Assembly (NCBI GenBank): GCA_026770705.1 | Contig: JANJGN010000002.1 | Coordinates: 208,940,001-209,004,000 of the forward strand | Source of the DNA: Isurus oxyrinchus | Lineage: Eukaryota | Direction: 5' to 3' | Length of the DNA stretch: 64,000 nt | Shown here: piece after piece, positions 330 to 64,000 of the stretch | How positions within the stretch are numbered: the first letter of the stretch is position 1 | Layout: every line of letters starts with the position of its first letter | Position numbers and translations under genes: made by a program | The notes under the pieces: generated by a model | Seen by the model: the letters and a program-made list of their open reading frames with translations, nothing else | The model's database searches: none | Told to the model about the DNA's origin: nothing

Positions 330-760
330 GCATTAAAATCTGCTCATTCATGCTCAGTTTGTGTTTCTCATTGACCGATCAACTTCAAACCCCGTTATTC
401 TTAGTTCAAAATGGACAAATTAGATAAATTGCAGAAGTGAGATGAGAATAGCTGCCCATGACATCTACTCAGCATACATCAACATGTGGCTCTGAGAGCC
501 TTAGCAAAATTGAGCATCCTGAGTGTTCTGGATCAATTACTCCACTCGTTGGGATCATACCGAGTACAATGGAAGATCGGAAGGGTTGTTCCACGTCGTT
601 CATCTCACTCTATGGAAATCTCTGCAAGAATCCCTCAGGGTAGGCTTCTCGGCCCAACCATCTTCAATTGCTTCAACAATGGCCTTCAGAAGTAGGGATG
701 TTTGCTGCTGGTTGCACAGTGTTCAGTGCCTTTTCCAATTCCTGAAATAATGATGCGCTC
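330..760 (+). mobile_element. Degenerate non-LTR retrotransposon (CR1/L2-group LINE) reverse transcriptase fragment, type A copy; one copy in each of the 40 units; boundaries approximate
   Basis: Colinear decayed RT motifs across frameshifts and stops: NLLIHAQF(V/L)F (cf. LL.D.QFGFR), RSEMRIAAHDIYSAY(I/V)NMW (cf. V.LDI..AFDRVW), ALAKL...LGSY, ISARIPQGRLLGPTIFNCF(I/N)NGL (cf. GVPQGSVLGP.LF..FINDL), EVGMFAAGCTVFS (cf. FADD catalytic motif, both Asp lost). Confidence 0.88.
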
Positions 761-1090
761 CCTAAACAACATTTCAAAATTTGTAACAAACTTTCAAGTA
801 TATGTATATTTATAATGTATGACAAAAGCAGGAAACCTGTCCTAAGCAGATCTCACAAATTGAACTCGATCAAAACACATAGTTGGTTCCATTGACTGCA
901 ACTTTCAAAGTTCTCCTTCCTCTGGTGACACCAAAGACAACTGGTGATGCAGAATTCACGTCAGGTGGAAGCTTTGGAGAGAGAAACCAATTCTTGTACT
1001 GGTACTGATCTGAAACAAATATTTGACTCTTCACCCAACGGAATTTCCTCAACCTCTGAGTCTTTACAAGATTTTCTGTTTTAATTTCAG

Positions 1091-1192
1091 ATAACGCAAC
1101 AAAGGATTCTTCACATTTTGGTCTAGAAAACATTACAGGAAATGAAACATCAAGAGCAGAAAACCGTCCTTCAACATTTCCACCATCAACAG
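1091..1192 (+). CDS. Type A repeat exon (14 copies): (D)NATKDSSHFGLENITGNETSRAENRPSTFPPST
   Basis: ttttctgttttaatttcag|ATAACGCAAC...CCATCAACAG|gtgtgtaa; 102 nt; sequons NAT, NIT, NET. Confidence 0.7.
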
Positions 1193-4100
1193 GTGTGTAA
1201 AATGGAACTCCAGCTATCACATTTCAAAACATGGATGTGAGTTCAAAATTCACGTCTATTACTGGTCTTGGTCATTACAAGAGCAAACACGACAGCATTG
1301 CCTGAATGTTCAGAATCGAGCACAGAAATGGAACCATTAATAATTCCAGAATTCCTTCAACCTATGTAACATTAGTATCTATGGCAACTGTTATAGACTG
1401 TGTCAATCTGATTGGTGCAGTTTAAAAGGTATTTACAAGACCAAATGTGGTCTACAGCGCAGAACTTAATGTCCACCACAGATGTCAATCCAGACACTGG
1501 GTTTGGGGCCATGTAATTTGATGGCAGTGTGCGGAGTGGAGATCAAGCTGCGAGTCAGAAGGATAAGGGGCATGCCTTCCTGCCAGGAATCCACATTCAG
1601 CCCTTAAGGAGCTGCATAAGGGCCTCACTCTGCCAGCAATGATATTCAACCAGTCAGCATGACGCCAGTCACGTACATTAAATGCCACCCATAAAGTTGC
1701 AAAATATATTCTTGTTACCATTCTTTCTTAGGAATGGATCGTTATTTTCCATTCTTGGCACAGATTTGCAGCAATGAACAAAATCCAGATAAGAGGCAAC
1801 TTAGCATCGCAAAGGTCATAAAATATCTGCTGTAGTCAAAGACTTTTTAATTATTCTAAAGCACACTTATACTATAATTCTTCACCATAATGACAGAAAC
1901 AATAGCAGTAACATAATAGGAAATATCATTAAAACCTGCTTATTCATGGTCAGTTTGTGTTTCTCATTGTCCGATCAACTTCAAACCCCATTCATCTTAG
2001 TTCAAAATAGACAAATTAGATAAACTCCAGAAGTGAGATGAGAATGGCTGCCCATGACATCTACTCAGCATACGTCAACATGTGGCTCTGAGAGCCTTAG
2101 CAAATTTGAGCATCCTGAGCGTTCTGGATCAATTACTCCAATCGTTGGGATCATACCGAGCACAATGGAGGATCGGAGGGGTTGTTCCACGTCGCTCTAT
2201 GGAAATCTCTGCAAGAATCCCTCAGGGTAGGCTTCTCGGCCCAATCATCTTCAATTGCTTCATCAATGGCCTACTGAAGGAGGGATGTTTGCTGCTGGTT
2301 GCACAGTGTTCAGTACCTTTTCCAAACCCTGAGAAAATGATGCACTTCCTAAACAACATTTCAAAATTCGTAACAAACTTTCAAATATATGTAAATTTCA
2401 AATATACAATAAAAGTAGGATTCCTGTCCTAAGCAGATCTCACAAGTTCAACTTGATCAAAACACATATTTGATTTCATTTACTGCAACTATCAAAATTG
2501 TCCTTCCTCTACTGACACCAAAGATAACTGTTGATGCAGAATCCAAGTCAGGTGGAAGTTTTGGAGAGAGAAACCAATTGTTCTACTGATAACGATCTGA
2601 AACTAATATTTTACTCTTCACTCTACGGAATCTGCTTCAACCTTTGAGACTTTACAAGATTTTCTGTTTTAATTACAGATTACACCACAAAGGAATCTTC
2701 ATATTTTGGTCTGGAAAACATTACAGGAAATGAAACATCAAGAGCGGAAAACCCTCCTTCAACATTTCCACCATCAACAGGTATGTAAAATTGAACTCCA
2801 GTAATCACATGTCAAACTATGGATGTGAGTTCAAAATTCAGGGACATCCCATCTTTTACTGGTCTTGGTCATTACAAGAGCAAACACAACAGTATTTCCT
2901 GAATGTTCAGAATCGAGCACAGAAACGGAACCATTAATAAATGCCAGAATTCCTTCAACCCATGTAACATTAGTATCTATGGCAACTGTTCTGAACAGTG
3001 TCAATCTGATTGATGCAGTTTAAGAGGTACTAACAAGACCAAATACAGTGCAGAACTTAATGTCCACCACAGATGCCAATCCAGGGACTGGGTTTGGGGC
3101 CATGTAATTTGATGGGAGTGTGCGCATTGGCAATCAAGCTGCGAGTCAGAAAGATAAAGGGCAGCCTTCCTGCCAGGAATCCACATTCGGCGCGTAAGGA
3201 GCTGCATAAGGGCCTCACTCTGCCACCAATGTTATTCAACCAGTCGGCATGACACCAGTCACATATATTAAATGCCGCCCATAAATTACAAAATATGTTC
3301 TTGTTACTATTCTATCTTAGGAATGGATCGTTATTTTCCTTTCTTGGTACATGTTTGCTACAATGAACAACATCCAGATAAGAGGCGGAGATCATATAAT
3401 TTCTGCTGCAGTCAAAGACCTTTTAATTATGCTAATGCACACTTACACTATAATTCTTCACCATAATGACAGAAATACGAGCACTAACATAATGGGAAAT
3501 AGCACTAAAAACCTGCTCATTCATGCTCAGTTTTTGTTTCTCGTTGATCGGTCAACTTCAAGCACTGTTAGTCTTAGTTCAAAATGGACAAATTAGATAA
3601 ATTGCAGAAGTGAGATGAGAATAGCTGCCCATGACATCTACTCAGCATACGTCAACATGTGGCTCTGAGAGCCTTAGCAAAATTGAGCATCCTGAGCGTT
3701 CTGGATCAATTACTCCACTCGTTGGGATCATACCGAGCACAATGGAAGATCGGAGGGGTTGTTCCATATCACTCATCTCACTCTATGGAAATCTCTGCAA
3801 GAATCCCTCAGGATAGTCTCCTCGACCCAACCATCTTCAATTGCTTCATCAATGGCCTACTGAAGTAGGGATGTTTGCTGCTGGTTGCACAGTGTTCAGC
3901 GCCTTTTCCAATTACTGAGACAATAATGCACTTCCAAAACAACATTTCAAAATTCCTAACAGACTTTCAAACATATGTATATTTAAGATATACAAAAAAA
4001 GCAGGATTCCTGTCCTAAGCATATCTCACAAATTCAACTGGATCAAAACACATATTTGATTCCATTTACTGCAACTATCAAAATTGTCCTTCCTCTAGTG

Positions 4101-7100
4101 ACACCAAAGTTGATGAAGAATCCACTTCACGTGGAAGCTTCGGACAGAGAAACCAATTGTTGTACTGATATCAAGTTGAAACAAATATTTGGCTCTTCAC
4201 TCTACGGAATCTGCCTCAACCTCTGAGTCTTTACAAGATTTTCTGTTTTAATTTCAGATTACAATACAAAGGATTCTTCACATTTTGAACTGGAAAACAT
4301 TACAGGAAATGAAACATCAAGAGCAGAAAACCCTCCTTCAACATTTCCACCATCAACAGGTATGTAAAATGGAACTCCAGCTATCACATGTCAAAATATG
4401 GTGTGAGTCCAAAATTCAGGGACATCCCGTCTTTTACTGGTCTTGGTCATTACAAGAGCAAACACGACAGCATTTCCTGAATGTTCAGAATCGAGCACAG
4501 AAACGGAACCATTAATAAATGCCAGAATTCCTTCAACCCATGTAACATTAGTATCTATGGCAACTGTTATGGACTGTGTCAATCTGATTGATGCAGTTTA
4601 GGATGTATTAACAAGGCCAAATGTGGTCTACAGCGCAGAACTTAATGTCCACCACAGATGCCAATCCAGAGACTGGGTTTGGGGCAATGTAATTTGATGG
4701 GAGTGTGCGCATTGGCAATCAAGCTGCGAGTCCAAAGGATAAAGGACAGCCTTCCTGCCAGGAATCCACATTCAGCCCTTAAGAAGCTGCTTAAGGGCCG
4801 CACTCTGCCACCAATGATATTCAACCAGTTGGCATGACACCAGTCACGTACATTAAATGCCACGCATGATGTTGCAAAAGATTTTCTTGTTACTATTCTT
4901 TCTTAGGAATGGATCGTTATTTTCCTTTCTTGGTACAGATTTGCTACAATGAACAAAATCCAGATAAGGGGCAACTTAGCATCGCAAAGATCATATAATT
5001 GCTGCTGTAGTCAAAGACTTTTTAATTATGCTAATGCACACTTATAATATAATTCTTCACCATAATGACAGAAACAAGAGCAGTAACATATTGGGAAATA
5101 GCACTAAAAACCTGCTCATTCATGCTCAGTTTGTGTTTCTCATTGACTGATCAACTTCAAACCCCGTTATTCTTAGTTCAAAATGGACAAATTAGATAAA
5201 TTGCAGAAGTGAGATGAGAATAGCTGCCCATGACATCTACTCAGCATACGTCAACATGTGGCTCTCAGAGCCTTAGCAAAATTGAGCATCCTGAGCGTTC
5301 TGGTTCAATTACTCCACTCGTTGGGATCATACCGAGCACAATGGAAGATCGGAAGGGTTGTTCCACGTCGTTCATCTCACTCTATGGAAATCTCTGCAAG
5401 AATCCCTCAGGGTAGGCTTCTCGGCCCAACCATCTTCAACTGCTTCATCCATGGCCTACTGAAGGAGGGATGTTTGCTGCTGGTTGCACAGTGTTCAGTA
5501 CCTATTCCAAATCCTGAGAAAATGATGCACTTCCTAAACAACATTTCAAAATTCGTAACAAACTTTCAAATATATGTAAATTTCAAATATACAATAAAAG
5601 CAGGATTCCTGTCCTAAGCAGATCTCACAAATTCAACTGGATCCAAACACATATTTGATTTCATTTACTGCAACTATCAAAATTGTCCTTCCTCTAGTGA
5701 CACCAAAGATAAATGTTGCTGCAGCATCCAAGTCAAATGGAAGTTTTGGGCAGAGAAACCAATTGTTCTACTGATAGCGATCTGAAACTAATATTTTACT
5801 CTTCACTCTACAGAATCTGCCTCAACCTTGGAGTCTTTACAAGATTTTCTGCTTTTATTTCAGATTACACCACAAAGGAATCTTCACATTTTGGTCTGGA
5901 AAACATTACAGGAAATGAAACATCAAGAGCAGAAAAAGCACCTTCAACATTTCCACCATCAACAGGTATGTAAAATTGAACTCCAGTTATCACATGTCCA
6001 AATATGGATGTGAGTTCAAAATTCAGGGACATCCCGTCTTTTATTAGTTCTGGTCATTACAAGAGCAAACACGACAGCATTTCCTGAATGTTCAGAATCG
6101 AGCACAGAAATGGAACCATTAATAAATGCCAGAATTCCTACAACCCATGTAACGTTAGTATCAATGGCAACTGTTATGGACTGTGTCAATCTGACTGATG
6201 CAGTTTAAGAGGTACTAACAAGACCAAATGTGATCTCCAGCACAGAACTTAATGTCCACCACAATGCCAATCCAGTGACTGGGTTTTGGGCCACGTAATT
6301 TGATGGGAGTGTGCGAAGTGGAGATCAAGCTGCATGTCAGAAGGATAAAGGGCAGCCTTCCTGCCAGGAATCCACATTCGGCTCTTAAGGAGCTGCATGA
6401 CAGCCTCACGCTGCCAACAATGATATTCAATCATTCAGCATGATATCAGTCTCGTACATTAAATGCCACCCATAAAGTTGCGAAATATGTTCTTGTTGCT
6501 ATTCTTTCTTAGGAATGGATCGTTATTTTCTTCTCTTGGTACAGATTTGCAGCAATGAACAAAATCCAGATAAGAGGCAACTTAGCATCGCAAAGATCAT
6601 ATAATTTCTGCTGTAGTCAAAGACTTTTTAATTATGCTAATACACCATTATACTATAATTCTTCACCATAATGACAGAAATAAGAGCAGTAATATATTGT
6701 GAAATAGCACTAAAAACCTGTTCAATCATGCTCAGTTTGTGTTTCTCATTGACCAATCAACTTCAAACCCCATTGGTCTTAGTTCAAAATGGACAAATTA
6801 GATAAATTGCAGAAGTGAGATGAGAATAGCTGCCCATGACATCAACTCAGCATACGTCAAAATGTGCCTCTCAGAGTCTTAGCAAAATTGAGCATCCTGA
6901 GCGTTCTGGATCAATTATTCCACTCGTTGGGATCATACCGAGCACAATGGATGATCAGAGGGGTTGTTCCATGTCGCTCATCTCACTCTATGGAAATCTC
7001 TGCAAGAATCCCTCAGGGTAGGATCCTCGGCCCAACCATCTTCAATTGCTTCATCAATGGCCTACAGAAGTAGGGATGTTTGCTGCTGGTTGCACAGTGT

Positions 7101-10100
7101 TCAGTACCTTTTCCAATTCCTGAAATAATGATGCACTTCCAAAACAACATTTCAAAATTCATAACAATCTTTCAAATATATGTATATTTATAATGTACAA
7201 CAAAAGCACGATACCTGTCCTGAGCATATCTCACAAATTCAACTGGATCAAAAGACATATTTGATTCCATTTACTGCAACTTTCAAAGTACTCCTTCTTC
7301 TAGTGACACCAAAGACAACTGGTGATGCAGAATTCACGTCAGGTGGAAGCTTCGGAGAGAGAAACCAATTCTTGTACTGGTACTGATCTGAAACAAATAT
7401 TTTGCACTTCACTCTATGGAATCTTCCTCAACATCTGAGTCTTGACAAGATTTTCTGTTTTAATTTCAGATAACACAACAAAGGATTCTTCACAGTTTGA
7501 TCTGGAAAACAATACAGGAAATGAAACATCAAGAGCAGAAAACCCTCCTTCAACATTTCCACCATCAACAGGTATGTAAAATTGAACTCCAGCTATTACA
7601 TGTCAAAATATGGATGTGAGTTCAAAATTCAGGGACTTTCCCGTCTTTTACTGGTTCTGGTCATTACAAGAGCAAACACGACCACATTTCCTGAATGTTG
7701 CTGAATGAGCACAGAAACGGAACCATTAATAAATGCCAGAATTCCTTCAACCCATTAACGTTAGTATCTATGGCAACTGTTATGGACTGTGTCAATCTGA
7801 CTGATGCAGTTTAAGAGGTACAAACAAGACCAAATGTGATCTCCAGCACAGAACTTAATATCCACCACAATGCCAATCCAGTGACTGGGTTTGGGGCCAT
7901 GTAATTTGATGGGAGTGTGCAAAGTGGAGATCAAGCTGCGAGTCAGAAGGATAAAGGGCAGCCTTCCTGCCAGGAATCCACATTTGGCTCTTAAGGAGCT
8001 GCATGACAGCCTCACGCTGCCAACAATGATATTCAATCATTCAGCATGATATCAGTCTCGTACATTAAATGCCGCCCATAAAGTTGCGAAATATGTTCTT
8101 GTTGCTATTCTTTCTTAGGAATGGATCGTTATTTTCCATTCTTGGCACAGATTTGCAGCAATGAACAAAATCCAGTTAAGAGGCAACTTAGCATCGCAAA
8201 GGTCATAAAATATCTGCTGTAGTCAAAGACTTTTTAATTATGCTAATGCACACTTATACTATAATTCTTCACCATAATGACAGAAACAATAGCAGTAACA
8301 TAATAGGAAATAGCATTAAAATCTGCTCATTCATGCTCAGTTTGTGTTTCTCATTGACCGATCAACTTCAAACCCCGTTATTCTTAGTTCAAAATGGACA
8401 AATTAGATAAATTGCAGAAGTGAGATGAGAATAGCTGCCCATGACATCTACTCAGCATACATCAACATGTGGCTCTGAGAGCCTTAGCAAAATTGAGCAT
8501 CCTGAGTGTTCTGGATCAATTACTCCACTCGTTGGGATCATACCGAGTACAATGGAAGATCGGAAGGGTTGTTCCACGTCGTTCATCTCACTCTATGGAA
8601 ATCTCTGCAAGAATCCCTCAGGGTAGGCTTCTCGGCCCAACCATCTTCAATTGCTTCAACAATGGCCTTCAGAAGTAGGGATGTTTGCTGCTGGTTGCAC
8701 AGTGTTCAGTGCCTTTTCCAATTCCTGAAATAATGATGCGCTCCCTAAACAACATTTCAAAATTTGTAACAAACTTTCAAGTATATGTATATTTATAATG
8801 TATGACAAAAGCAGGAAACCTGTCCTAAGCAGATCTCACAAATTGAACTCGATCAAAACACATAGTTGGTTCCATTGACTGCAACTTTCAAAGTTCTCCT
8901 TCCTCTGGTGACACCAAAGACAACTGGTGATGCAGAATTCACGTCAGGTGGAAGCTTTGGAGAGAGAAACCAATTCTTGTACTGGTACTGATCTGAAACA
9001 AATATTTGACTCTTCACCCAACGGAATTTCCTCAACCTCTGAGTCTTTACAAGATTTTCTGTTTTAATTTCAGATAACGCAACAAAGGATTCTTCACATT
9101 TTGGTCTAGAAAACATTACAGGAAATGAAACATCAAGAGCAGAAAACCGTCCTTCAACATTTCCACCATCAACAGGTGTGTAAAATGGAACTCCAGCTAT
9201 CACATTTCAAAACATGGATGTGAGTTCAAAATTCACGTCTATTACTGGTCTTGGTCATTACAAGAGCAAACACGACAGCATTGCCTGAATGTTCAGAATC
9301 GAGCACAGAAATGGAACCATTAATAATTCCAGAATTCCTTCAACCTATGTAACATTAGTATCTATGGCAACTGTTATAGACTGTGTCAATCTGATTGGTG
9401 CAGTTTAAAAGGTATTTACAAGACCAAATGTGGTCTACAGCGCAGAACTTAATGTCCACCACAGATGTCAATCCAGACACTGGGTTTGGGGCCATGTAAT
9501 TTGATGGCAGTGTGCGGAGTGGAGATCAAGCTGCGAGTCAGAAGGATAAGGGGCATGCCTTCCTGCCAGGAATCCACATTCAGCCCTTAAGGAGCTGCAT
9601 AAGGGCCTCACTCTGCCAGCAATGATATTCAACCAGTCAGCATGACGCCAGTCACGTACATTAAATGCCACCCATAAAGTTGCAAAATATATTCTTGTTA
9701 CCATTCTTTCTTAGGAATGGATCGTTATTTTCCATTCTTGGCACAGATTTGCAGCAATGAACAAAATCCAGATAAGAGGCAACTTAGCATCGCAAAGGTC
9801 ATAAAATATCTGCTGTAGTCAAAGACTTTTTAATTATTCTAAAGCACACTTATACTATAATTCTTCACCATAATGACAGAAACAATAGCAGTAACATAAT
9901 AGGAAATATCATTAAAACCTGCTTATTCATGGTCAGTTTGTGTTTCTCATTGTCCGATCAACTTCAAACCCCATTCATCTTAGTTCAAAATAGACAAATT
10001 AGATAAACTCCAGAAGTGAGATGAGAATGGCTGCCCATGACATCTACTCAGCATACGTCAACATGTGGCTCTGAGAGCCTTAGCAAATTTGAGCATCCTG

Positions 10101-13100
10101 AGCGTTCTGGATCAATTACTCCAATCGTTGGGATCATACCGAGCACAATGGAGGATCGGAGGGGTTGTTCCACGTCGCTCTATGGAAATCTCTGCAAGAA
10201 TCCCTCAGGGTAGGCTTCTCGGCCCAATCATCTTCAATTGCTTCATCAATGGCCTACTGAAGGAGGGATGTTTGCTGCTGGTTGCACAGTGTTCAGTACC
10301 TTTTCCAAACCCTGAGAAAATGATGCACTTCCTAAACAACATTTCAAAATTCGTAACAAACTTTCAAATATATGTAAATTTCAAATATACAATAAAAGTA
10401 GGATTCCTGTCCTAAGCAGATCTCACAAGTTCAACTTGATCAAAACACATATTTGATTTCATTTACTGCAACTATCAAAATTGTCCTTCCTCTACTGACA
10501 CCAAAGATAACTGTTGATGCAGAATCCAAGTCAGGTGGAAGTTTTGGAGAGAGAAACCAATTGTTCTACTGATAACGATCTGAAACTAATATTTTACTCT
10601 TCACTCTACGGAATCTGCTTCAACCTTTGAGACTTTACAAGATTTTCTGTTTTAATTACAGATTACACCACAAAGGAATCTTCATATTTTGGTCTGGAAA
10701 ACATTACAGGAAATGAAACATCAAGAGCGGAAAACCCTCCTTCAACATTTCCACCATCAACAGGTATGTAAAATTGAACTCCAGTAATCACATGTCAAAC
10801 TATGGATGTGAGTTCAAAATTCAGGGACATCCCATCTTTTACTGGTCTTGGTCATTACAAGAGCAAACACAACAGTATTTCCTGAATGTTCAGAATCGAG
10901 CACAGAAACGGAACCATTAATAAATGCCAGAATTCCTTCAACCCATGTAACATTAGTATCTATGGCAACTGTTCTGAACAGTGTCAATCTGATTGATGCA
11001 GTTTAAGAGGTACTAACAAGACCAAATACAGTGCAGAACTTAATGTCCACCACAGATGCCAATCCAGGGACTGGGTTTGGGGCCATGTAATTTGATGGGA
11101 GTGTGCGCATTGGCAATCAAGCTGCGAGTCAGAAAGATAAAGGGCAGCCTTCCTGCCAGGAATCCACATTCGGCGCGTAAGGAGCTGCATAAGGGCCTCA
11201 CTCTGCCACCAATGTTATTCAACCAGTCGGCATGACACCAGTCACATATATTAAATGCCGCCCATAAATTACAAAATATGTTCTTGTTACTATTCTATCT
11301 TAGGAATGGATCGTTATTTTCCTTTCTTGGTACATGTTTGCTACAATGAACAACATCCAGATAAGAGGCGGAGATCATATAATTTCTGCTGCAGTCAAAG
11401 ACCTTTTAATTATGCTAATGCACACTTACACTATAATTCTTCACCATAATGACAGAAATACGAGCACTAACATAATGGGAAATAGCACTAAAAACCTGCT
11501 CATTCATGCTCAGTTTTTGTTTCTCGTTGATCGGTCAACTTCAAGCACTGTTAGTCTTAGTTCAAAATGGACAAATTAGATAAATTGCAGAAGTGAGATG
11601 AGAATAGCTGCCCATGACATCTACTCAGCATACGTCAACATGTGGCTCTGAGAGCCTTAGCAAAATTGAGCATCCTGAGCGTTCTGGATCAATTACTCCA
11701 CTCGTTGGGATCATACCGAGCACAATGGAAGATCGGAGGGGTTGTTCCATATCACTCATCTCACTCTATGGAAATCTCTGCAAGAATCCCTCAGGATAGT
11801 CTCCTCGACCCAACCATCTTCAATTGCTTCATCAATGGCCTACTGAAGTAGGGATGTTTGCTGCTGGTTGCACAGTGTTCAGCGCCTTTTCCAATTACTG
11901 AGACAATAATGCACTTCCAAAACAACATTTCAAAATTCCTAACAGACTTTCAAACATATGTATATTTAAGATATACAAAAAAAGCAGGATTCCTGTCCTA
12001 AGCATATCTCACAAATTCAACTGGATCAAAACACATATTTGATTCCATTTACTGCAACTATCAAAATTGTCCTTCCTCTAGTGACACCAAAGTTGATGAA
12101 GAATCCACTTCACGTGGAAGCTTCGGACAGAGAAACCAATTGTTGTACTGATATCAAGTTGAAACAAATATTTGGCTCTTCACTCTACGGAATCTGCCTC
12201 AACCTCTGAGTCTTTACAAGATTTTCTGTTTTAATTTCAGATTACAATACAAAGGATTCTTCACATTTTGAACTGGAAAACATTACAGGAAATGAAACAT
12301 CAAGAGCAGAAAACCCTCCTTCAACATTTCCACCATCAACAGGTATGTAAAATGGAACTCCAGCTATCACATGTCAAAATATGGTGTGAGTCCAAAATTC
12401 AGGGACATCCCGTCTTTTACTGGTCTTGGTCATTACAAGAGCAAACACGACAGCATTTCCTGAATGTTCAGAATCGAGCACAGAAACGGAACCATTAATA
12501 AATGCCAGAATTCCTTCAACCCATGTAACATTAGTATCTATGGCAACTGTTATGGACTGTGTCAATCTGATTGATGCAGTTTAGGATGTATTAACAAGGC
12601 CAAATGTGGTCTACAGCGCAGAACTTAATGTCCACCACAGATGCCAATCCAGAGACTGGGTTTGGGGCAATGTAATTTGATGGGAGTGTGCGCATTGGCA
12701 ATCAAGCTGCGAGTCCAAAGGATAAAGGACAGCCTTCCTGCCAGGAATCCACATTCAGCCCTTAAGAAGCTGCTTAAGGGCCGCACTCTGCCACCAATGA
12801 TATTCAACCAGTTGGCATGACACCAGTCACGTACATTAAATGCCACGCATGATGTTGCAAAAGATTTTCTTGTTACTATTCTTTCTTAGGAATGGATCGT
12901 TATTTTCCTTTCTTGGTACAGATTTGCTACAATGAACAAAATCCAGATAAGGGGCAACTTAGCATCGCAAAGATCATATAATTGCTGCTGTAGTCAAAGA
13001 CTTTTTAATTATGCTAATGCACACTTATAATATAATTCTTCACCATAATGACAGAAACAAGAGCAGTAACATATTGGGAAATAGCACTAAAAACCTGCTC

Positions 13101-52100: not shown

Positions 52101-55100
52101 ACCCAACGGAATTTCCTCAACCTCTGAGTCTTTACAAGATTTTCTGTTTTAATTTCAGATAACGCAACAAAGGATTCTTCACATTTTGGTCTAGAAAACA
52201 TTACAGGAAATGAAACATCAAGAGCAGAAAACCGTCCTTCAACATTTCCACCATCAACAGGTGTGTAAAATGGAACTCCAGCTATCACATTTCAAAACAT
52301 GGATGTGAGTTCAAAATTCACGTCTATTACTGGTCTTGGTCATTACAAGAGCAAACACGACAGCATTGCCTGAATGTTCAGAATCGAGCACAGAAATGGA
52401 ACCATTAATAATTCCAGAATTCCTTCAACCTATGTAACATTAGTATCTATGGCAACTGTTATAGACTGTGTCAATCTGATTGGTGCAGTTTAAAAGGTAT
52501 TTACAAGACCAAATGTGGTCTACAGCGCAGAACTTAATGTCCACCACAGATGTCAATCCAGACACTGGGTTTGGGGCCATGTAATTTGATGGCAGTGTGC
52601 GGAGTGGAGATCAAGCTGCGAGTCAGAAGGATAAGGGGCATGCCTTCCTGCCAGGAATCCACATTCAGCCCTTAAGGAGCTGCATAAGGGCCTCACTCTG
52701 CCAGCAATGATATTCAACCAGTCAGCATGACGCCAGTCACGTACATTAAATGCCACCCATAAAGTTGCAAAATATATTCTTGTTACCATTCTTTCTTAGG
52801 AATGGATCGTTATTTTCCATTCTTGGCACAGATTTGCAGCAATGAACAAAATCCAGATAAGAGGCAACTTAGCATCGCAAAGGTCATAAAATATCTGCTG
52901 TAGTCAAAGACTTTTTAATTATTCTAAAGCACACTTATACTATAATTCTTCACCATAATGACAGAAACAATAGCAGTAACATAATAGGAAATATCATTAA
53001 AACCTGCTTATTCATGGTCAGTTTGTGTTTCTCATTGTCCGATCAACTTCAAACCCCATTCATCTTAGTTCAAAATAGACAAATTAGATAAACTCCAGAA
53101 GTGAGATGAGAATGGCTGCCCATGACATCTACTCAGCATACGTCAACATGTGGCTCTGAGAGCCTTAGCAAATTTGAGCATCCTGAGCGTTCTGGATCAA
53201 TTACTCCAATCGTTGGGATCATACCGAGCACAATGGAGGATCGGAGGGGTTGTTCCACGTCGCTCTATGGAAATCTCTGCAAGAATCCCTCAGGGTAGGC
53301 TTCTCGGCCCAATCATCTTCAATTGCTTCATCAATGGCCTACTGAAGGAGGGATGTTTGCTGCTGGTTGCACAGTGTTCAGTACCTTTTCCAAACCCTGA
53401 GAAAATGATGCACTTCCTAAACAACATTTCAAAATTCGTAACAAACTTTCAAATATATGTAAATTTCAAATATACAATAAAAGTAGGATTCCTGTCCTAA
53501 GCAGATCTCACAAGTTCAACTTGATCAAAACACATATTTGATTTCATTTACTGCAACTATCAAAATTGTCCTTCCTCTACTGACACCAAAGATAACTGTT
53601 GATGCAGAATCCAAGTCAGGTGGAAGTTTTGGAGAGAGAAACCAATTGTTCTACTGATAACGATCTGAAACTAATATTTTACTCTTCACTCTACGGAATC
53701 TGCTTCAACCTTTGAGACTTTACAAGATTTTCTGTTTTAATTACAGATTACACCACAAAGGAATCTTCATATTTTGGTCTGGAAAACATTACAGGAAATG
53801 AAACATCAAGAGCGGAAAACCCTCCTTCAACATTTCCACCATCAACAGGTATGTAAAATTGAACTCCAGTAATCACATGTCAAACTATGGATGTGAGTTC
53901 AAAATTCAGGGACATCCCATCTTTTACTGGTCTTGGTCATTACAAGAGCAAACACAACAGTATTTCCTGAATGTTCAGAATCGAGCACAGAAACGGAACC
54001 ATTAATAAATGCCAGAATTCCTTCAACCCATGTAACATTAGTATCTATGGCAACTGTTCTGAACAGTGTCAATCTGATTGATGCAGTTTAAGAGGTACTA
54101 ACAAGACCAAATACAGTGCAGAACTTAATGTCCACCACAGATGCCAATCCAGGGACTGGGTTTGGGGCCATGTAATTTGATGGGAGTGTGCGCATTGGCA
54201 ATCAAGCTGCGAGTCAGAAAGATAAAGGGCAGCCTTCCTGCCAGGAATCCACATTCGGCGCGTAAGGAGCTGCATAAGGGCCTCACTCTGCCACCAATGT
54301 TATTCAACCAGTCGGCATGACACCAGTCACATATATTAAATGCCGCCCATAAATTACAAAATATGTTCTTGTTACTATTCTATCTTAGGAATGGATCGTT
54401 ATTTTCCTTTCTTGGTACATGTTTGCTACAATGAACAACATCCAGATAAGAGGCGGAGATCATATAATTTCTGCTGCAGTCAAAGACCTTTTAATTATGC
54501 TAATGCACACTTACACTATAATTCTTCACCATAATGACAGAAATACGAGCACTAACATAATGGGAAATAGCACTAAAAACCTGCTCATTCATGCTCAGTT
54601 TTTGTTTCTCGTTGATCGGTCAACTTCAAGCACTGTTAGTCTTAGTTCAAAATGGACAAATTAGATAAATTGCAGAAGTGAGATGAGAATAGCTGCCCAT
54701 GACATCTACTCAGCATACGTCAACATGTGGCTCTGAGAGCCTTAGCAAAATTGAGCATCCTGAGCGTTCTGGATCAATTACTCCACTCGTTGGGATCATA
54801 CCGAGCACAATGGAAGATCGGAGGGGTTGTTCCATATCACTCATCTCACTCTATGGAAATCTCTGCAAGAATCCCTCAGGATAGTCTCCTCGACCCAACC
54901 ATCTTCAATTGCTTCATCAATGGCCTACTGAAGTAGGGATGTTTGCTGCTGGTTGCACAGTGTTCAGCGCCTTTTCCAATTACTGAGACAATAATGCACT
55001 TCCAAAACAACATTTCAAAATTCCTAACAGACTTTCAAACATATGTATATTTAAGATATACAAAAAAAGCAGGATTCCTGTCCTAAGCATATCTCACAAA

Positions 55101-58100
55101 TTCAACTGGATCAAAACACATATTTGATTCCATTTACTGCAACTATCAAAATTGTCCTTCCTCTAGTGACACCAAAGTTGATGAAGAATCCACTTCACGT
55201 GGAAGCTTCGGACAGAGAAACCAATTGTTGTACTGATATCAAGTTGAAACAAATATTTGGCTCTTCACTCTACGGAATCTGCCTCAACCTCTGAGTCTTT
55301 ACAAGATTTTCTGTTTTAATTTCAGATTACAATACAAAGGATTCTTCACATTTTGAACTGGAAAACATTACAGGAAATGAAACATCAAGAGCAGAAAACC
55401 CTCCTTCAACATTTCCACCATCAACAGGTATGTAAAATGGAACTCCAGCTATCACATGTCAAAATATGGTGTGAGTCCAAAATTCAGGGACATCCCGTCT
55501 TTTACTGGTCTTGGTCATTACAAGAGCAAACACGACAGCATTTCCTGAATGTTCAGAATCGAGCACAGAAACGGAACCATTAATAAATGCCAGAATTCCT
55601 TCAACCCATGTAACATTAGTATCTATGGCAACTGTTATGGACTGTGTCAATCTGATTGATGCAGTTTAGGATGTATTAACAAGGCCAAATGTGGTCTACA
55701 GCGCAGAACTTAATGTCCACCACAGATGCCAATCCAGAGACTGGGTTTGGGGCAATGTAATTTGATGGGAGTGTGCGCATTGGCAATCAAGCTGCGAGTC
55801 CAAAGGATAAAGGACAGCCTTCCTGCCAGGAATCCACATTCAGCCCTTAAGAAGCTGCTTAAGGGCCGCACTCTGCCACCAATGATATTCAACCAGTTGG
55901 CATGACACCAGTCACGTACATTAAATGCCACGCATGATGTTGCAAAAGATTTTCTTGTTACTATTCTTTCTTAGGAATGGATCGTTATTTTCCTTTCTTG
56001 GTACAGATTTGCTACAATGAACAAAATCCAGATAAGGGGCAACTTAGCATCGCAAAGATCATATAATTGCTGCTGTAGTCAAAGACTTTTTAATTATGCT
56101 AATGCACACTTATAATATAATTCTTCACCATAATGACAGAAACAAGAGCAGTAACATATTGGGAAATAGCACTAAAAACCTGCTCATTCATGCTCAGTTT
56201 GTGTTTCTCATTGACTGATCAACTTCAAACCCCGTTATTCTTAGTTCAAAATGGACAAATTAGATAAATTGCAGAAGTGAGATGAGAATAGCTGCCCATG
56301 ACATCTACTCAGCATACGTCAACATGTGGCTCTCAGAGCCTTAGCAAAATTGAGCATCCTGAGCGTTCTGGTTCAATTACTCCACTCGTTGGGATCATAC
56401 CGAGCACAATGGAAGATCGGAAGGGTTGTTCCACGTCGTTCATCTCACTCTATGGAAATCTCTGCAAGAATCCCTCAGGGTAGGCTTCTCGGCCCAACCA
56501 TCTTCAACTGCTTCATCCATGGCCTACTGAAGGAGGGATGTTTGCTGCTGGTTGCACAGTGTTCAGTACCTATTCCAAATCCTGAGAAAATGATGCACTT
56601 CCTAAACAACATTTCAAAATTCGTAACAAACTTTCAAATATATGTAAATTTCAAATATACAATAAAAGCAGGATTCCTGTCCTAAGCAGATCTCACAAAT
56701 TCAACTGGATCCAAACACATATTTGATTTCATTTACTGCAACTATCAAAATTGTCCTTCCTCTAGTGACACCAAAGATAAATGTTGCTGCAGCATCCAAG
56801 TCAAATGGAAGTTTTGGGCAGAGAAACCAATTGTTCTACTGATAGCGATCTGAAACTAATATTTTACTCTTCACTCTACAGAATCTGCCTCAACCTTGGA
56901 GTCTTTACAAGATTTTCTGCTTTTATTTCAGATTACACCACAAAGGAATCTTCACATTTTGGTCTGGAAAACATTACAGGAAATGAAACATCAAGAGCAG
57001 AAAAAGCACCTTCAACATTTCCACCATCAACAGGTATGTAAAATTGAACTCCAGTTATCACATGTCCAAATATGGATGCGAGTTCAAAATTCAGGGACAT
57101 CCCGTCTTTTATTAGTTCTGGTCATTACAAGAGCAAACACGACAGCATTTCCTGAATGTTCAGAATCGAGCACAGAAATGGAACCATTAATAAATGCCAG
57201 AATTCCTACAACCCATGTAACGTTAGTATCAATGGCAACTGTTATGGACTGTGTCAATCTGACTGATGCAGTTTAAGAGGTACTAACAAGACCAAATGTG
57301 ATCTCCAGCACAGAACTTAATGTCCACCACAATGCCAATCCAGTGACTGGGTTTTGGGCCACGTAATTTGATGGGAGTGTGCGAAGTGGAGATCAAGCTG
57401 CATGTCAGAAGGATAAAGGGCAGCCTTCCTGCCAGGAATCCACATTCGGCTCTTAAGGAGCTGCATGACAGCCTCACGCTGCCAACAATGATATTCAATC
57501 ATTCAGCATGATATCAGTCTCGTACATTAAATGCCACCCATAAAGTTGCGAAATATGTTCTTGTTGCTATTCTTTCTTAGGAATGGATCGTTATTTTCTT
57601 CTCTTGGTACAGATTTGCAGCAATGAACAAAATCCAGATAAGAGGCAACTTAGCATCGCAAAGATCATATAATTTCTGCTGTAGTCAAAGACTTTTTAAT
57701 TATGCTAATACACCATTATACTATAATTCTTCACCATAATGACAGAAATAAGAGCAGTAATATATTGTGAAATAGCACTAAAAACCTGTTCAATCATGCT
57801 CAGTTTGTGTTTCTCATTGACCAATCAACTTCAAACCCCATTGGTCTTAGTTCAAAATGGACAAATTAGATAAATTGCAGAAGTGAGATGAGAATAGCTG
57901 CCCATGACATCAACTCAGCATACGTCAAAATGTGCCTCTCAGAGTCTTAGCAAAATTGAGCATCCTGAGCGTTCTGGATCAATTATTCCACTCGTTGGGA
58001 TCATACCGAGCACAATGGATGATCAGAGGGGTTGTTCCATGTCGCTCATCTCACTCTATGGAAATCTCTGCAAGAATCCCTCAGGGTAGGATCCTCGGCC

Positions 58101-61100
58101 CAACCATCTTCAATTGCTTCATCAATGGCCTACAGAAGTAGGGATGTTTGCTGCTGGTTGCACAGTGTTCAGTACCTTTTCCAATTCCTGAAATAATGAT
58201 GCACTTCCAAAACAACATTTCAAAATTCATAACAATCTTTCAAATATATGTATATTTATAATGTACAACAAAAGCACGATACCTGTCCTGAGCATATCTC
58301 ACAAATTCAACTGGATCAAAAGACATATTTGATTCCATTTACTGCAACTTTCAAAGTACTCCTTCTTCTAGTGACACCAAAGACAACTGGTGATGCAGAA
58401 TTCACGTCAGGTGGAAGCTTCGGAGAGAGAAACCAATTCTTGTACTGGTACTGATCTGAAACAAATATTTTGCACTTCACTCTATGGAATCTTCCTCAAC
58501 ATCTGAGTCTTGACAAGATTTTCTGTTTTAATTTCAGATAACACAACAAAGGATTCTTCACAGTTTGATCTGGAAAACAATACAGGAAATGAAACATCAA
58601 GAGCAGAAAACCCTCCTTCAACATTTCCACCATCAACAGGTATGTAAAATTGAACTCCAGCTATTACATGTCAAAATATGGATGTGAGTTCAAAATTCAG
58701 GGACTTTCCCGTCTTTTACTGGTTCTGGTCATTACAAGAGCAAACACGACCACATTTCCTGAATGTTGCTGAATGAGCACAGAAACGGAACCATTAATAA
58801 ATGCCAGAATTCCTTCAACCCATTAACGTTAGTATCTATGGCAACTGTTATGGACTGTGTCAATCTGACTGATGCAGTTTAAGAGGTACAAACAAGACCA
58901 AATGTGATCTCCAGCACAGAACTTAATATCCACCACAATGCCAATCCAGTGACTGGGTTTGGGGCCATGTAATTTGATGGGAGTGTGCAAAGTGGAGATC
59001 AAGCTGCGAGTCAGAAGGATAAAGGGCAGCCTTCCTGCCAGGAATCCACATTTGGCTCTTAAGGAGCTGCATGACAGCCTCACGCTGCCAACAATGATAT
59101 TCAATCATTCAGCATGATATCAGTCTCGTACATTAAATGCCGCCCATAAAGTTGCGAAATATGTTCTTGTTGCTATTCTTTCTTAGGAATGGATCGTTAT
59201 TTTCCATTCTTGGCACAGATTTGCAGCAATGAACAAAATCCAGTTAAGAGGCAACTTAGCATCGCAAAGGTCATAAAATATCTGCTGTAGTCAAAGACTT
59301 TTTAATTATGCTAATGCACACTTATACTATAATTCTTCACCATAATGACAGAAACAATAGCAGTAACATAATAGGAAATAGCATTAAAATCTGCTCATTC
59401 ATGCTCAGTTTGTGTTTCTCATTGACCGATCAACTTCAAACCCCGTTATTCTTAGTTCAAAATGGACAAATTAGATAAATTGCAGAAGTGAGATGAGAAT
59501 AGCTGCCCATGACATCTACTCAGCATACATCAACATGTGGCTCTGAGAGCCTTAGCAAAATTGAGCATCCTGAGTGTTCTGGATCAATTACTCCACTCGT
59601 TGGGATCATACCGAGTACAATGGAAGATCGGAAGGGTTGTTCCACGTCGTTCATCTCACTCTATGGAAATCTCTGCAAGAATCCCTCAGGGTAGGCTTCT
59701 CGGCCCAACCATCTTCAATTGCTTCAACAATGGCCTTCAGAAGTAGGGATGTTTGCTGCTGGTTGCACAGTGTTCAGTGCCTTTTCCAATTCCTGAAATA
59801 ATGATGCGCTCCCTAAACAACATTTCAAAATTTGTAACAAACTTTCAAGTATATGTATATTTATAATGTATGACAAAAGCAGGAAACCTGTCCTAAGCAG
59901 ATCTCACAAATTGAACTCGATCAAAACACATAGTTGGTTCCATTGACTGCAACTTTCAAAGTTCTCCTTCCTCTGGTGACACCAAAGACAACTGGTGATG
60001 CAGAATTCACGTCAGGTGGAAGCTTTGGAGAGAGAAACCAATTCTTGTACTGGTACTGATCTGAAACAAATATTTGACTCTTCACCCAACGGAATTTCCT
60101 CAACCTCTGAGTCTTTACAAGATTTTCTGTTTTAATTTCAGATAACGCAACAAAGGATTCTTCACATTTTGGTCTAGAAAACATTACAGGAAATGAAACA
60201 TCAAGAGCAGAAAACCGTCCTTCAACATTTCCACCATCAACAGGTGTGTAAAATGGAACTCCAGCTATCACATTTCAAAACATGGATGTGAGTTCAAAAT
60301 TCACGTCTATTACTGGTCTTGGTCATTACAAGAGCAAACACGACAGCATTGCCTGAATGTTCAGAATCGAGCACAGAAATGGAACCATTAATAATTCCAG
60401 AATTCCTTCAACCTATGTAACATTAGTATCTATGGCAACTGTTATAGACTGTGTCAATCTGATTGGTGCAGTTTAAAAGGTATTTACAAGACCAAATGTG
60501 GTCTACAGCGCAGAACTTAATGTCCACCACAGATGTCAATCCAGACACTGGGTTTGGGGCCATGTAATTTGATGGCAGTGTGCGGAGTGGAGATCAAGCT
60601 GCGAGTCAGAAGGATAAGGGGCATGCCTTCCTGCCAGGAATCCACATTCAGCCCTTAAGGAGCTGCATAAGGGCCTCACTCTGCCAGCAATGATATTCAA
60701 CCAGTCAGCATGACGCCAGTCACGTACATTAAATGCCACCCATAAAGTTGCAAAATATATTCTTGTTACCATTCTTTCTTAGGAATGGATCGTTATTTTC
60801 CATTCTTGGTACAGATTTGCAGCAATGAACAAAATCCAGTTAAGAGGCAACTTAGCATCGCAAAGGTCATAAAATATCTGCTGTAGTCAAAGACTTTTTA
60901 ATTATGCTAATGCACACTTATACTATAATTCTTCACCATAATGACAGAAACAATAGCAGTAACATAATAGGAAATAGCATTAAAATCTGCTCATTCATGC
61001 TCAGTTTGTGTTTCTCATTGACCGATCAACTTCAAACCCCGTTATTCTTAGTTCAAAATGGACAAATTAGATAAATTGCAGAAGTGAGATGAGAATAGCT

Positions 61101-63427
61101 GCCCATGACATCTACTCAGCATACATCAACATGTGGCTCTGAGAGCCTTAGCAAAATTGAGCATCCTGAGTGTTCTGGATCAATTACTCCACTCGTTGGG
61201 ATCATACCGAGTACAATGGAAGATCGGAAGGGTTGTTCCACGTCGTTCATCTCACTCTATGGAAATCTCTGCAAGAATCCCTCAGGGTAGGCTTCTCGGC
61301 CCAACCATCTTCAATTGCTTCAACAATGGCCTTCAGAAGTAGGGATGTTTGCTGCTGGTTGCACAGTGTTCAGTGCCTTTTCCAATTCCTGAAATAATGA
61401 TGCGCTCCCTAAACAACATTTCAAAATTTGTAACAAACTTTCAAGTATATGTATATTTATAATGTATGACAAAAGCAGGAAACCTGTCCTAAGCAGATCT
61501 CACAAATTGAACTCGATCAAAACACATATTTGGTTCCATTGACTGCAACTTTCAAAGTTCTCCTTCCTCTGGTGACACCAAAGACAACTGGTGATGCAGA
61601 ATTCACGTCAGGTGGAAGCTTTGGAGAGAGAAACCAATTCTTGTACTGGTACTGATCTGAAACAAATATTTGACTCTTCACCCAACGGAATTTCCTCAAC
61701 CTCTGAGTCTTTACAAGATTTTCTGTTTTAATTTCAGATAACGCAACAAAGGATTCTTCACATTTTGGTCTAGAAAACATTACAGGAAATGAAACATCAA
61801 GAGCAGAAAACCGTCCTTCAACATTTCCACCATCAACAGGTGTGTAAAATGGAACTCCAGCTATCACATTTCAAAACATGGATGTGAGTTCAAAATTCAC
61901 GTCTATTACTGGTCTTGGTCATTACAAGAGCAAACACGACAGCATTGCCTGAATGTTCAGAATCGAGCACAGAAATGGAACCATTAATAATTCCAGAATT
62001 CCTTCAACCTATGTAACATTAGTATCTATGGCAACTGTTATAGACTGTGTCAATCTGATTGGTGCAGTTTAAAAGGTATTTACAAGACCAAATGTGGTCT
62101 ACAGCGCAGAACTTAATGTCCACCACAGATGTCAATCCAGACACTGGGTTTGGGGCCATGTAATTTGATGGCAGTGTGCGGAGTGGAGATCAAGCTGCGA
62201 GTCAGAAGGATAAGGGGCATGCCTTCCTGCCAGGAATCCACATTCAGCCCTTAAGGAGCTGCATAAGGGCCTCACTCTGCCAGCAATGATATTCAACCAG
62301 TCAGCATGACGCCAGTCACGTACATTAAATGCCACCCATAAAGTTGCAAAATATATTCTTGTTACCATTCTTTCTTAGGAATGGATCGTTATTTTCCATT
62401 CTTGGCACAGATTTGCAGCAATGAACAAAATCCAGATAAGAGGCAACTTAGCATCGCAAAGGTCATAAAATATCTGCTGTAGTCAAAGACTTTTTAATTA
62501 TTCTAAAGCACACTTATACTATAATTCTTCACCATAATGACAGAAACAATAGCAGTAACATAATAGGAAATATCATTAAAACCTGCTTATTCATGGTCAG
62601 TTTGTGTTTCTCATTGTCCGATCAACTTCAAACCCCATTCATCTTAGTTCAAAATAGACAAATTAGATAAACTCCAGAAGTGAGATGAGAATGGCTGCCC
62701 ATGACATCTACTCAGCATACGTCAACATGTGGCTCTGAGAGCCTTAGCAAATTTGAGCATCCTGAGCGTTCTGGATCAATTACTCCAATCGTTGGGATCA
62801 TACCGAGCACAATGGAGGATCGGAGGGGTTGTTCCACGTCGCTCTATGGAAATCTCTGCAAGAATCCCTCAGGGTAGGCTTCTCGGCCCAATCATCTTCA
62901 ATTGCTTCATCAATGGCCTACTGAAGGAGGGATGTTTGCTGCTGGTTGCACAGTGTTCAGTACCTTTTCCAAACCCTGAGAAAATGATGCACTTCCTAAA
63001 CAACATTTCAAAATTCGTAACAAACTTTCAAATATATGTAAATTTCAAATATACAATAAAAGTAGGATTCCTGTCCTAAGCAGATCTCACAAGTTCAACT
63101 TGATCAAAACACATATTTGATTTCATTTACTGCAACTATCAAAATTGTCCTTCCTCTACTGACACCAAAGATAACTGTTGATGCAGAATCCAAGTCAGGT
63201 GGAAGTTTTGGAGAGAGAAACCAATTGTTCTACTGATAACGATCTGAAACTAATATTTTACTCTTCACTCTACGGAATCTGCTTCAACCTTTGAGACTTT
63301 ACAAGATTTTCTGTTTTAATTACAGATTACACCACAAAGGAATCTTCATATTTTGGTCTGGAAAACATTACAGGAAATGAAACATCAAGAGCGGAAAACC
63401 CTCCTTCAACATTTCCACCATCAACAG
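1091..63427 (+). CDS. Putative partial multi-exon CDS: 40 x 102-nt phase-1 exons encoding a 1360-aa mucin-like, N-glycosylation-rich 34-aa tandem repeat region (no start or stop in window)
   Basis: Exon starts (each 102 nt): 1091A 2679B 4258C 5864D 7470E 9074A 10662B 12241C 13847D 15453E 17057A 18653A 20241B 21820C 23426D 25032E 26636A 28232A 29820B 31399C 33005D 34611E 36215A 37811A 39399B 40984A 42580A 44168B 45747C 47353D 48959E 50563A 52159A 53747B 55326C 56932D 58538E 60142A 61738A 63326B. The first five were read directly; the rest were placed by unit offset and spot-checked. Exons have TTTTCTG(T/C)TTT(A/T)ATT(T/A)CAG acceptors and CAACAG|GT(A/G)TGT donors. Each junction G|AT gives Asp and the frame stays open. 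Introns are 1477-1504 nt. No transcript evidence is available. Confidence 0.72.
1926..2347 (+). mobile_element. LINE RT remnant, type B copy (9-nt internal deletion near 2194)
   Basis: Track ORF 2082..2432 contains ISARIPQGRLLGPIIFNCFINGL; same motif order as the type A copy. Confidence 0.85.
2679..2780 (+). CDS. Type B repeat exon (8 copies): (D)YTTKESSYFGLENITGNETSRAENPPSTFPPST
   Basis: ttttctgttttaattacag|ATTACACCAC...CCATCAACAG|gtatgtaa; 102 nt; sequons NIT, NET. Confidence 0.72.
3503..3933 (+). mobile_element. LINE RT remnant, type C copy
   Basis: NLLIHAQFLFL (ORF 3351..3596) and ISARIPQDSLLDPTIFNCFINGL (ORF 3659..3868). Confidence 0.85.
4258..4359 (+). CDS. Type C repeat exon (6 copies): (D)YNTKDSSHFELENITGNETSRAENPPSTFPPST
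   Basis: ttttctgttttaatttcag|ATTACAATAC...CCATCAACAG|gtatgtaa; 102 nt; sequons NIT, NET. Confidence 0.72.
4775..4798. other. Short inverted repeat GCCCTTAAG-aagctg-CTTAAGGGC (perfect 9-bp arms in type C, degenerate in other types)
   Basis: Read directly; the arms are exact reverse complements. The type A equivalent is gcccttaaggagctgcataagggc at 4-27. Confidence 0.8.
5102..5532 (+). mobile_element. LINE RT remnant, type D copy
   Basis: ISARIPQGRLLGPTIFNCFIHGL (ORF 5258..5617). Confidence 0.85.
5864..5965 (+). CDS. Type D repeat exon (6 copies): (D)YTTKESSHFGLENITGNETSRAEKAPSTFPPST
   Basis: ttttctgcttttatttcag|ATTACACCAC...CCATCAACAG|gtatgtaa; 102 nt. The peptide is visible at the end of track ORF 5713..5973. 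Confidence 0.72.
6708..7138 (+). mobile_element. LINE RT remnant, type E copy
   Basis: ISARIPQGRILGPTIFNCFINGL (ORF 6864..7073). Confidence 0.85.
7470..7571 (+). CDS. Type E repeat exon (6 copies): (D)NTTKDSSQFDLENNTGNETSRAENPPSTFPPST
   Basis: ttttctgttttaatttcag|ATAACACAAC...CCATCAACAG|gtatgtaa; 102 nt; sequons NTT, NNT, NET. Confidence 0.72.
8441..16423. repeat. 5-mer HOR variant ABCDE (7983 bp, single A)
   Basis: E tail, then A at 8441, then B directly at 10037; ORF track offset of 7983. Confidence 0.96.
16424..35581. repeat. Two 6-mer HOR copies AABCDE (9579 bp each; 16424-26002 and 26003-35581)
   Basis: The ORF set recurs at +9579. Confidence 0.97.
35582..40350. repeat. Truncated HOR AAB (4769 bp; C, D and E missing)
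   Basis: B at 38774 is followed at +1577 by an A-type unit carrying C-type upstream sequence. Confidence 0.96.
40351..59508. repeat. Two 6-mer HOR copies AABCDE (40351-49929 and 49930-59508)
   Basis: The ORF set recurs at +9579. Confidence 0.97.
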
Positions 63428-64000
63428 GTATGTAAAATTGAACTCCAGTAATCACATGTCAAACTATGGATGTGAGTTCAAAATTCAGGGACATCCCATC
63501 TTTTACTGGTCTTGGTCATTACAAGAGCAAACACAACAGTATTTCCTGAATGTTCAGAATCGAGCACAGAAACGGAACCATTAATAAATGCCAGAATTCC
63601 TTCAACCCATGTAACATTAGTATCTATGGCAACTGTTCTGAACAGTGTCAATCTGATTGATGCAGTTTAAGAGGTACTAACAAGACCAAATACAGTGCAG
63701 AACTTAATGTCCACCACAGATGCCAATCCAGGGACTGGGTTTGGGGCCATGTAATTTGATGGGAGTGTGCGCATTGGCAATCAAGCTGCGAGTCAGAAAG
63801 ATAAAGGGCAGCCTTCCTGCCAGGAATCCACATTCGGCGCGTAAGGAGCTGCATAAGGGCCTCACTCTGCCACCAATGTTATTCAACCAGTCGGCATGAC
63901 ACCAGTCACATATATTAAATGCCGCCCATAAATTACAAAATATGTTCTTGTTACTATTCTATCTTAGGAATGGATCGTTATTTTCCTTTCTTGGTACATG
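59509..64000. repeat. Partial HOR AAB..., cut by the window end
   Basis: A at 59509, A at 61105, B at 62701. Confidence 0.95.

Follow-up and report, generated by a model that had tools for sequence, protein, structure and literature searches.

Human mucins, MUC4 included, are described as carrying their VNTR within one large exon (PMC13345508), and human MUC4 has 26 exons, a single large one of which holds the VNTR (PMC5354666, PMC13345508). Human MUC19, which had been considered as a mucin with an exon-split repeat domain, is described with an uninterrupted central exon (PMC13345508) and was set aside. Chicken (and zebrafish) Muc13, by contrast, is a transmembrane mucin in which each repeat has its own near-identical exon, and a splicing-based control of length was proposed for it (PMC1552070). 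The chicken protein is of the SEA type, is supported by ESTs and has at least 12 repeats, each 20 aa long (PMC1552070). In the SmPoMuc genes of Schistosoma mansoni, which form a tandem gene cluster, an exon and its flanking intron make up a unit of about 1 kb that shows concerted evolution; exon 2 is of 27 nt, with at most about 20 repeats, and the product is an unrelated parasite protein (PMC2576457). Split mucin domains were proposed by Lang et al. (2006) to be the ancestral vertebrate state, with length controlled by splicing (PMC1552070). A literature search that covered few subscription journals and no supplements gave no description of a repeat domain split over exons, either for MUC4 or for mucins of sharks.

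The window analyzed here is a stretch of 64,000 nt from the shark Isurus oxyrinchus (genome size 4.98 Gb). Its 102-nt segments are probably in-frame repeat units, flanked by splice sites, of a shark mucin-4-like gene; they are likely spliced as coding exons. The predicted product is a glycoprotein tethered to the membrane, which may reach about 4,500 aa, about 2,700 aa of them in a glycosylated stalk. We infer that the repeat exons are spliced, and a transcript may include all of them.

Repeat exons of the window and their peptide

The whole window is a tandem repeat with a unit of about 1.6 kb and a higher-order period of 7,983 bp (Table 1). Tandem Repeats Finder reported no array in the window because its period limit is 500. 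The first-pass annotation of this DNA had proposed that the apparent satellite hides one exon per unit, and its description of that exon was borne out: the 102-nt segment with a CAG acceptor was found in 40 of 40 window copies, the donor is CAG/GTATGT in 26 and CAG/GTGTGT in 14, and a candidate branch site (TTTAC in 34 copies, TTGAC in 6) lies 16-36 nt upstream of the exon. The five types A-E that it had distinguished are all present, and were found to be arranged in higher-order units ABCDE (7,983 bp) and AABCDE (9,579 bp) with one irregular step; the last repeat exon of the window occupies 63326-63427. Concatenation in phase 1 gave an open frame, with no stop in 1,359 codons, and the other two frames contain 14 and 72 stops. 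The two junction 18-mers, expected to be missing from genomic DNA, occurred 0 times in 714 kb of it; in the spliced model, one was counted 30 times and the other 44 times.

Table 1. Features of the repeat array and its host gene. Coordinates are window positions; values below 1 or above 64,000 run beyond the window.
Feature	Position	Strand	Remarks
Window-wide array	1..64000	+	Entire window within the young array (74 units, -30552 to 87366) of the probable mucin-4-like gene
40 repeat exons, types A-E	1091..63427	+	Phase 1-1; each of 102 nt (34 codons); spacing 1,579-1,606 bp
Type-A exon, first	1091..1192	+	14 copies in window; GTGTGT donor
Type-B exon	2679..2780	+	8 copies in window
Type-C exon	4258..4359	+	6 copies in window
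Type-D exon	5864..5965	+	6 copies in window
Type-E exon	7470..7571	+	6 copies in window
Example intron	1193..2678	+	GT...AG, 1,486 nt, duplicated together with exon
Decayed interspersed-repeat fragment, one per intron	2136..2344	+	2 matches, 67-81% identity, in 250 kb farther upstream
Recombinant unit	39399..40983	+	At irregular step of higher-order pattern
Five old repeat exons	starts -69780, -60251, -56755, -51218, -32043	+	Single, scattered; 77-81% identity to window unit
Broken old repeat copy	-55154	+	Breaks off after about 50 nt
Signal-peptide exon, phase 1	-83062 to -83005	+	Matches P0005 N-terminus (homology)
Exon 2, phase 1-1	-73192 to -73100	+	Mapped from relatives
S/T and FN3 exons	91860-97908	+	Phase-1 S/T exons; downstream of array
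Four EGF exons	111768-115531	+	Before NIDO
NIDO and AMOP-like exons	119463-130181	+	One additional base near 123987
VWD/GDPH and C8-3 exons	136646-143114	+	VWD E=1.9e-5 on one exon; GDPH present
EGF exons, then TM exon	TM 179299-179478	+	TM judged by hydrophobic sequence and homology
Last exon	ends 184951	+	Short tail

Splice sites were scored with approximate weight matrices. By these, the acceptors reach 5.1-8.0, compared with 4.3 at the 90th percentile of local AG sites, and the donors 5.9-10.1, compared with a 95th percentile of 6.3, type A being on the weaker side; a low donor score (2.0) was obtained for the first of the old copies.

As the first-pass annotation had counted, 13 of 34 residues in type A and 15 of 34 in type B are S, T or P, and Cys is absent. 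The young repeats contain 31% S+T, 11% P and 16% D+E, with 178 N-sequons in 74 repeats (2-3 each). The old copies carry 0-1 sequon together with an acidic DY motif, which may resemble a tyrosine sulfation site. Mucin PTS domains are described as typically having at least 40% Ser+Thr and more than 5% Pro (PMC4948705); the young repeat lies under the first value and over the second. The unit is acidic, low in S+T and predicted to be rich in N-glycans, and it is not a classic PTS domain. The stalk would bear O-glycans together with 2-3 N-glycans per repeat and would act as a glycocalyx spacer on the epithelium. The protein would be tethered in the membrane as part of the glycocalyx and may be cut at GDPH, a cleavage that has been proposed for MUC4 (PMC5354666). 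The idea that shark mucus is dominated by N-glycans was dropped, as PMC10532229 gives mostly O-glycans. A gene labelled muc4, which may correspond to this gene or to a paralogue, is described as marking mucosal cells in dogfish skin (PMC13558645), and MUC4 is absent from the main text of a paper on the shark skin proteome (PMC10707392).

Host gene and its relatives in sharks

The array had been claimed to be the interior of a very large glycoprotein gene, with compatible phase-1 exons on its flanks. Such exons were found on the plus strand on both sides: the signal-peptide exon and exon 2 upstream, and phase-1 S/T exons followed by FN3, EGF, NIDO, VWD and transmembrane exons downstream. Together with orthologue matches, they support the claim. 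The gene model comprises 116 exons over 268 kb and would encode about 4,513 aa, 2,686 aa of which come from repeats; AG/GT ends were found for 116 of 116 exons, and the chain is in frame except for one base. A size of about 4,500 aa is unexceptional for MUC4, human VNTR exon alleles of which reach 27.8 kb (PMC13345508).

The VWD exon, used as a query, found 11 proteins, the top eight of which are shark/ray models at 83-93% identity, named "mucin-4-like" or "mucin-like" or unnamed. The shark "mucin-4-like" proteins used for comparison, all automatic annotations, are from Scyliorhinus canicula (P0001), S. torazame (P0002), Chiloscyllium plagiosum (P0004/P0005) and the zebra shark Stegostoma tigrinum (P0012). 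Mapping relatives back onto the locus gave 35 tail exons (91860 to 184951), encoding 1,776 aa that are free of stops when the extra base is marked X; identity to four shark mucin-4-like proteins is 78-85%, and the invariant Cys are kept (62/62). Pfam domains detected in the relatives are NIDO, VWD, C8-3_MUC4, EGF and fn3. NIDO scored at an E of about 1e-27 in three relatives, and the exons of the Isurus gene match this region at about 72-92%; C8-3_MUC4 was scored in the relatives, with the corresponding region of the gene aligned. For AMOP, one exon gave E=0.023, at 15 bits against a cut-off of 25, and the domain was unreported in five full-length relatives. Pfam gave no SEA match for two juxtamembrane exons, nor for five of the relatives.

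The 3' neighbour of the gene is TNK2/ACK1, as judged from an ACK1 SH3 match (E=3e-8) and UBA exons; it lies on the minus strand, tail to tail, and begins about 23 kb past the stop. In human 3q29, MUC20, MUC4 and TNK2 are described within one interval (PMC10320979). The likeness to CD45 and CD44 drawn in the first-pass annotation gave way to that of a mucin-4-like gene: the CD45/CD44 identity, like that of MUC13/HEG1, was rejected on the domain content and the TNK2 neighbour.

Annotated shark orthologues carry a homologous unit: P0001 has 1 copy, P0005 has 2 and P0012 has 11, the length being 34 aa in two of these and 35 aa in the other nine. The units of P0005 and P0012 each begin at the Asp that is created by the phase-1 junction. 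The 33-aa unit has no counterpart among Pfam families. In each of two genome searches, 40 of 78 candidates were scored, and 40 of 40 lay in the mucin-4-like locus. No other protein of up to 3,353 aa with the Stegostoma repeat region was found. In a tree built on 34 columns, the type amplified in Stegostoma is separate from all units of the Isurus gene (100/99); the 12 young types cluster together (94/86, under the strict cut).

The gene belongs to a cluster with three VWD matches in tandem. The upstream paralogue U1 (FN3 at G000:C2:208.649 Mb) carries a separate array, made up of 77 exons of phase 1-1, mainly of 99 nt (44 exons) and 108 nt (28 exons), with S/T/P of at least 50% and in families other than the young unit. 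The more distant paralogue U2 has one open 310-aa S/T stretch in place of an array. Since U1 carries an array of other families and the zebra shark amplified a different unit, the expansions in the Isurus gene, in U1 and in the zebra shark look independent.

Age, selection and integrity of the array

A search of 464 kb around the window gave 81 matches, namely 79 intact 102-nt copies with AG/GT ends, 1 broken copy and 1 short minus-strand chance match. The 79 intact repeat exons consist of 74 young ones and 5 old ones. Exon-less intron remnants lie past the 3' edge of the array and older copies at its 5' edge; this gradient of age at the edges is directly observed, as are the anatomy of the array and its homology. 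Among the 72 complete units, 33 distinct sequences were counted. Among the 14 singleton units, 12 differ from the nearest unit by 1-3 substitutions only, 1 by an 11-bp deletion, and 1 is a recombinant. Identity of up to 10 units over about 1.6 kb, the most that was seen, would agree with a repeat over-expanded by the assembly and a copy number inflated accordingly. This is very unlikely in view of the number of distinct sequences, the private substitutions scattered along the array, the irregular higher-order pattern, the older copies at the edges and a region without N gaps.

Growth would have started from a few ancestral single phase 1-1 exons, one of which, with its intron, would have been amplified by unequal crossing-over. 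Monomers would have come first, blocks of five and six units next, followed by homogenisation. Every exon is of phase 1-1 and a multiple of 3, so its gain, loss or skipping leaves the frame intact.

dN/dS was 0.89 for 66 young pairs, 0.73 for 10 old pairs and 0.99 for 60 mixed pairs, and at these values of about 0.7-1 a purifying signal at the amino-acid level is absent. Within the young array, divergence is 0.060 in exons and 0.074 in introns, with 31% of 102-nt intron windows equally conserved; 23 of 23 gap intervals are intronic, yet 14% of intron windows are gap-free; and 0 stops in 25 young alleles has a P of about 0.25. Taken alone, the young array is not distinguishable from neutral, its exon conservation and its lack of gaps and stops being within chance. 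The five types do keep length, splice sites and frame, as the first-pass annotation stated, but by itself its appeal to this conservation is weak. Among old-old pairs, on the other hand, the exon is gap-free in 10 of 10, with 2-14 gap openings per 200 nt in the flanks, and no stop was found in any of 75 distinct coding alleles overall (naive P about 0.016, from a test that assumes equal rates; the broken copy was excluded from gap and stop counts). Gap-free old exons and stop-free alleles suggest that selection acts on length and frame, not on residues. A non-coding intronic satellite with chance splice-like motifs would agree with the near-neutral divergence within the young array and with the decayed interspersed-repeat fragment in each unit, presumably one with a reverse-transcriptase-like motif. 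It is scarcely credible, however, for a unit that is homologous to protein in three other sharks, with the boundary at the identical Asp in two, whose old copies hold length and frame while the flanks gather gaps, and whose phases fit both flanking exon sets.

The one base that breaks the frame of the gene is an additional base in a C/T run of the NIDO exon (123948-124085); a stop follows 17 codons on, and a literal reading ends at aa 3,299. Of 201 HSPs over three paralogues, no others form a frameshift-like pair. As the nearby assembly looks accurate and a second such pair is lacking, the lesion may be real; the extra base reflects either an error in the assembly or a null allele of very recent origin. 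In the RNA comparison, four of five contig sets assigned to the species by label gave mostly interspersed repeats in the NIDO-exon region, and none of the 15 joints listed, out of 53, corresponds to a predicted intron, which carries weight neither way. If the lesion is real, the gene could be a recent pseudogene or loss-of-function copy with a drifted array, its product being degraded or secreted as a truncated stalk. The high local accuracy of the assembly, dN/dS near 1, the near-neutral divergence of the array and a close paralogue, U1, that could take over the function are compatible with this, but the extra base is the single lesion in 35 tail exons, the invariant Cys are complete, and private substitutions in the tail number 34, compared with 21-34 in four relatives. 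The base also lies in a C/T run, and sequencing errors are common in such runs. Loss of function is therefore considered improbable.

In another reading, the exons are genuine yet mostly skipped; each transcript would take some of the 79 cassettes, and the 4,500-aa product would be rare. Skipping would be harmless given the symmetric phase, donor strength varies among types, annotated orthologues list only 1-11 units, and skipping has been considered for chicken Muc13 as well (PMC1552070). Both splice sites are nevertheless kept in 74 of 74 young copies, no test favours skipping over inclusion, and the low orthologue counts may be real or may reflect collapsed assemblies, so predominant skipping is held to be the less probable course. 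As to the nature of the segments, it agrees with the preferred reading. A further, speculative proposal is that the frame-neutral cassette exons of shark MUC4-family genes form a dial for length and glycans: copy number would vary between individuals by unequal crossing-over, splicing within one animal would set how many of the 79 units enter the product, and each paralogue or lineage would have amplified its own unit. In the Isurus lineage, an ancestral acidic-tyrosine unit with 0-1 N-sequon would have been swapped for one with 2-3 sequons, giving up to about 180 N-glycans and no classic O-glycan brush.

Comparison with known systems

The Isurus gene has its domain order and an N-terminal unit of 34-35 aa in common with the shark mucin-4-like models, to which its tail is similar as described above. 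It differs from them in the number of units, 79 compared with 0-11 in the models (compared as proteins), and Stegostoma amplified a different 35-aa type. With mammalian MUC4 it shares a signal peptide, a tandem-repeat domain, NIDO, the position of AMOP, VWD with GDPH, EGFs, a TM and a short tail (PMC5354666, PMC13345508), as well as the TNK2 neighbour and a repeat domain of variable length. Unlike the human gene, with its single VNTR exon, it has one repeat per stalk exon among its 116 exons; it also has an additional FN3 and four EGFs ahead of NIDO and further EGFs behind VWD, AMOP scores only weakly in it, and its acidic repeat is predicted to be rich in N-glycans. The single large repeat exon is a trait of mammalian gene structure and not a criterion of MUC4 orthology.

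As in Muc13 and SmPoMuc, a near-identical exon is copied with its intron for each repeat of the Isurus array. The differences from chicken Muc13 are the MUC4-type NIDO and VWD, the 79 repeats of 34 aa and the higher-order structure, and the Isurus gene is known from genomic sequence alone. The one-exon-per-repeat design would hence be extended from Muc13 to the MUC4 family, at a far larger scale. In practice, annotation would mask a 115-kb array of coding exons as satellite and underestimate the protein. The repeated, apparently independent expansions within one cluster and across sharks are relevant to what Lang et al. (2006) proposed, which becomes testable at the Isurus locus. The design itself is known; this case stands out by its scale and by the repeated expansion.

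Possible lesions and recombination in the mucin-4-like gene

The repeat unit at the irregular step of the main gene's array is recombinant, and likely marks a point of unequal crossover. Two other anomalies were observed elsewhere in this gene. The extra base in the NIDO exon reflects either an assembly error or a recent null allele. The broken repeat exon, as read by eye, could still yield a chimeric in-frame exon, by use of a GT located 96 nt in. Beyond the mucin stop lies a long open frame, which we take to be retrotransposon reverse transcriptase-like.

Features of the mucin cluster and its surroundings (window numbering, carried past both ends; contig, JANJGN010000002.1 numbering; L, labelled stretches of that contig)
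Feature	Position	Strand	Remark
Recombinant repeat unit	window 39399-40983		sole irregular step of the higher-order pattern
NIDO exon with +1 base	123948-124085 (L026:9948 to L027:85)
Broken repeat exon	-55154 (L015:4846)		foreign sequence enters after about 50 nt
Long open frame, about 490 aa	186,080-187,549 (L033:2080-3549)	+	just 3' of mucin stop
TNK2/ACK1 gene	about 207,700-259,750	-	tail to tail with the mucin-4-like gene
U1 S/T exon array	contig 208,559,337-208,639,310	+	77 exons, all phase 1-1
Paralogue U2	-200,000 to -124,000	+	about 40% identity to shark models

Upstream paralogues U1 and U2

The array of the upstream paralogue U1 is distinct from that of the main gene. It is built of 99-nt and 108-nt exon families, which recur roughly every 2.2 and 2.6 kb. 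Its probable signal-peptide exon lies near contig position 208,549,226. A partial duplicate copy of a U1 EGF exon was also observed, at 208,722,180 (L045:2180-2290). The more distant paralogue U2 encodes, in order, EGF domains, a single open S/T stretch of 310 aa, NIDO, VWD, EGF and a TM segment. Thus, with one open S/T stretch in U2 and split S/T exons in U1, two mucin gene designs occur within one cluster.
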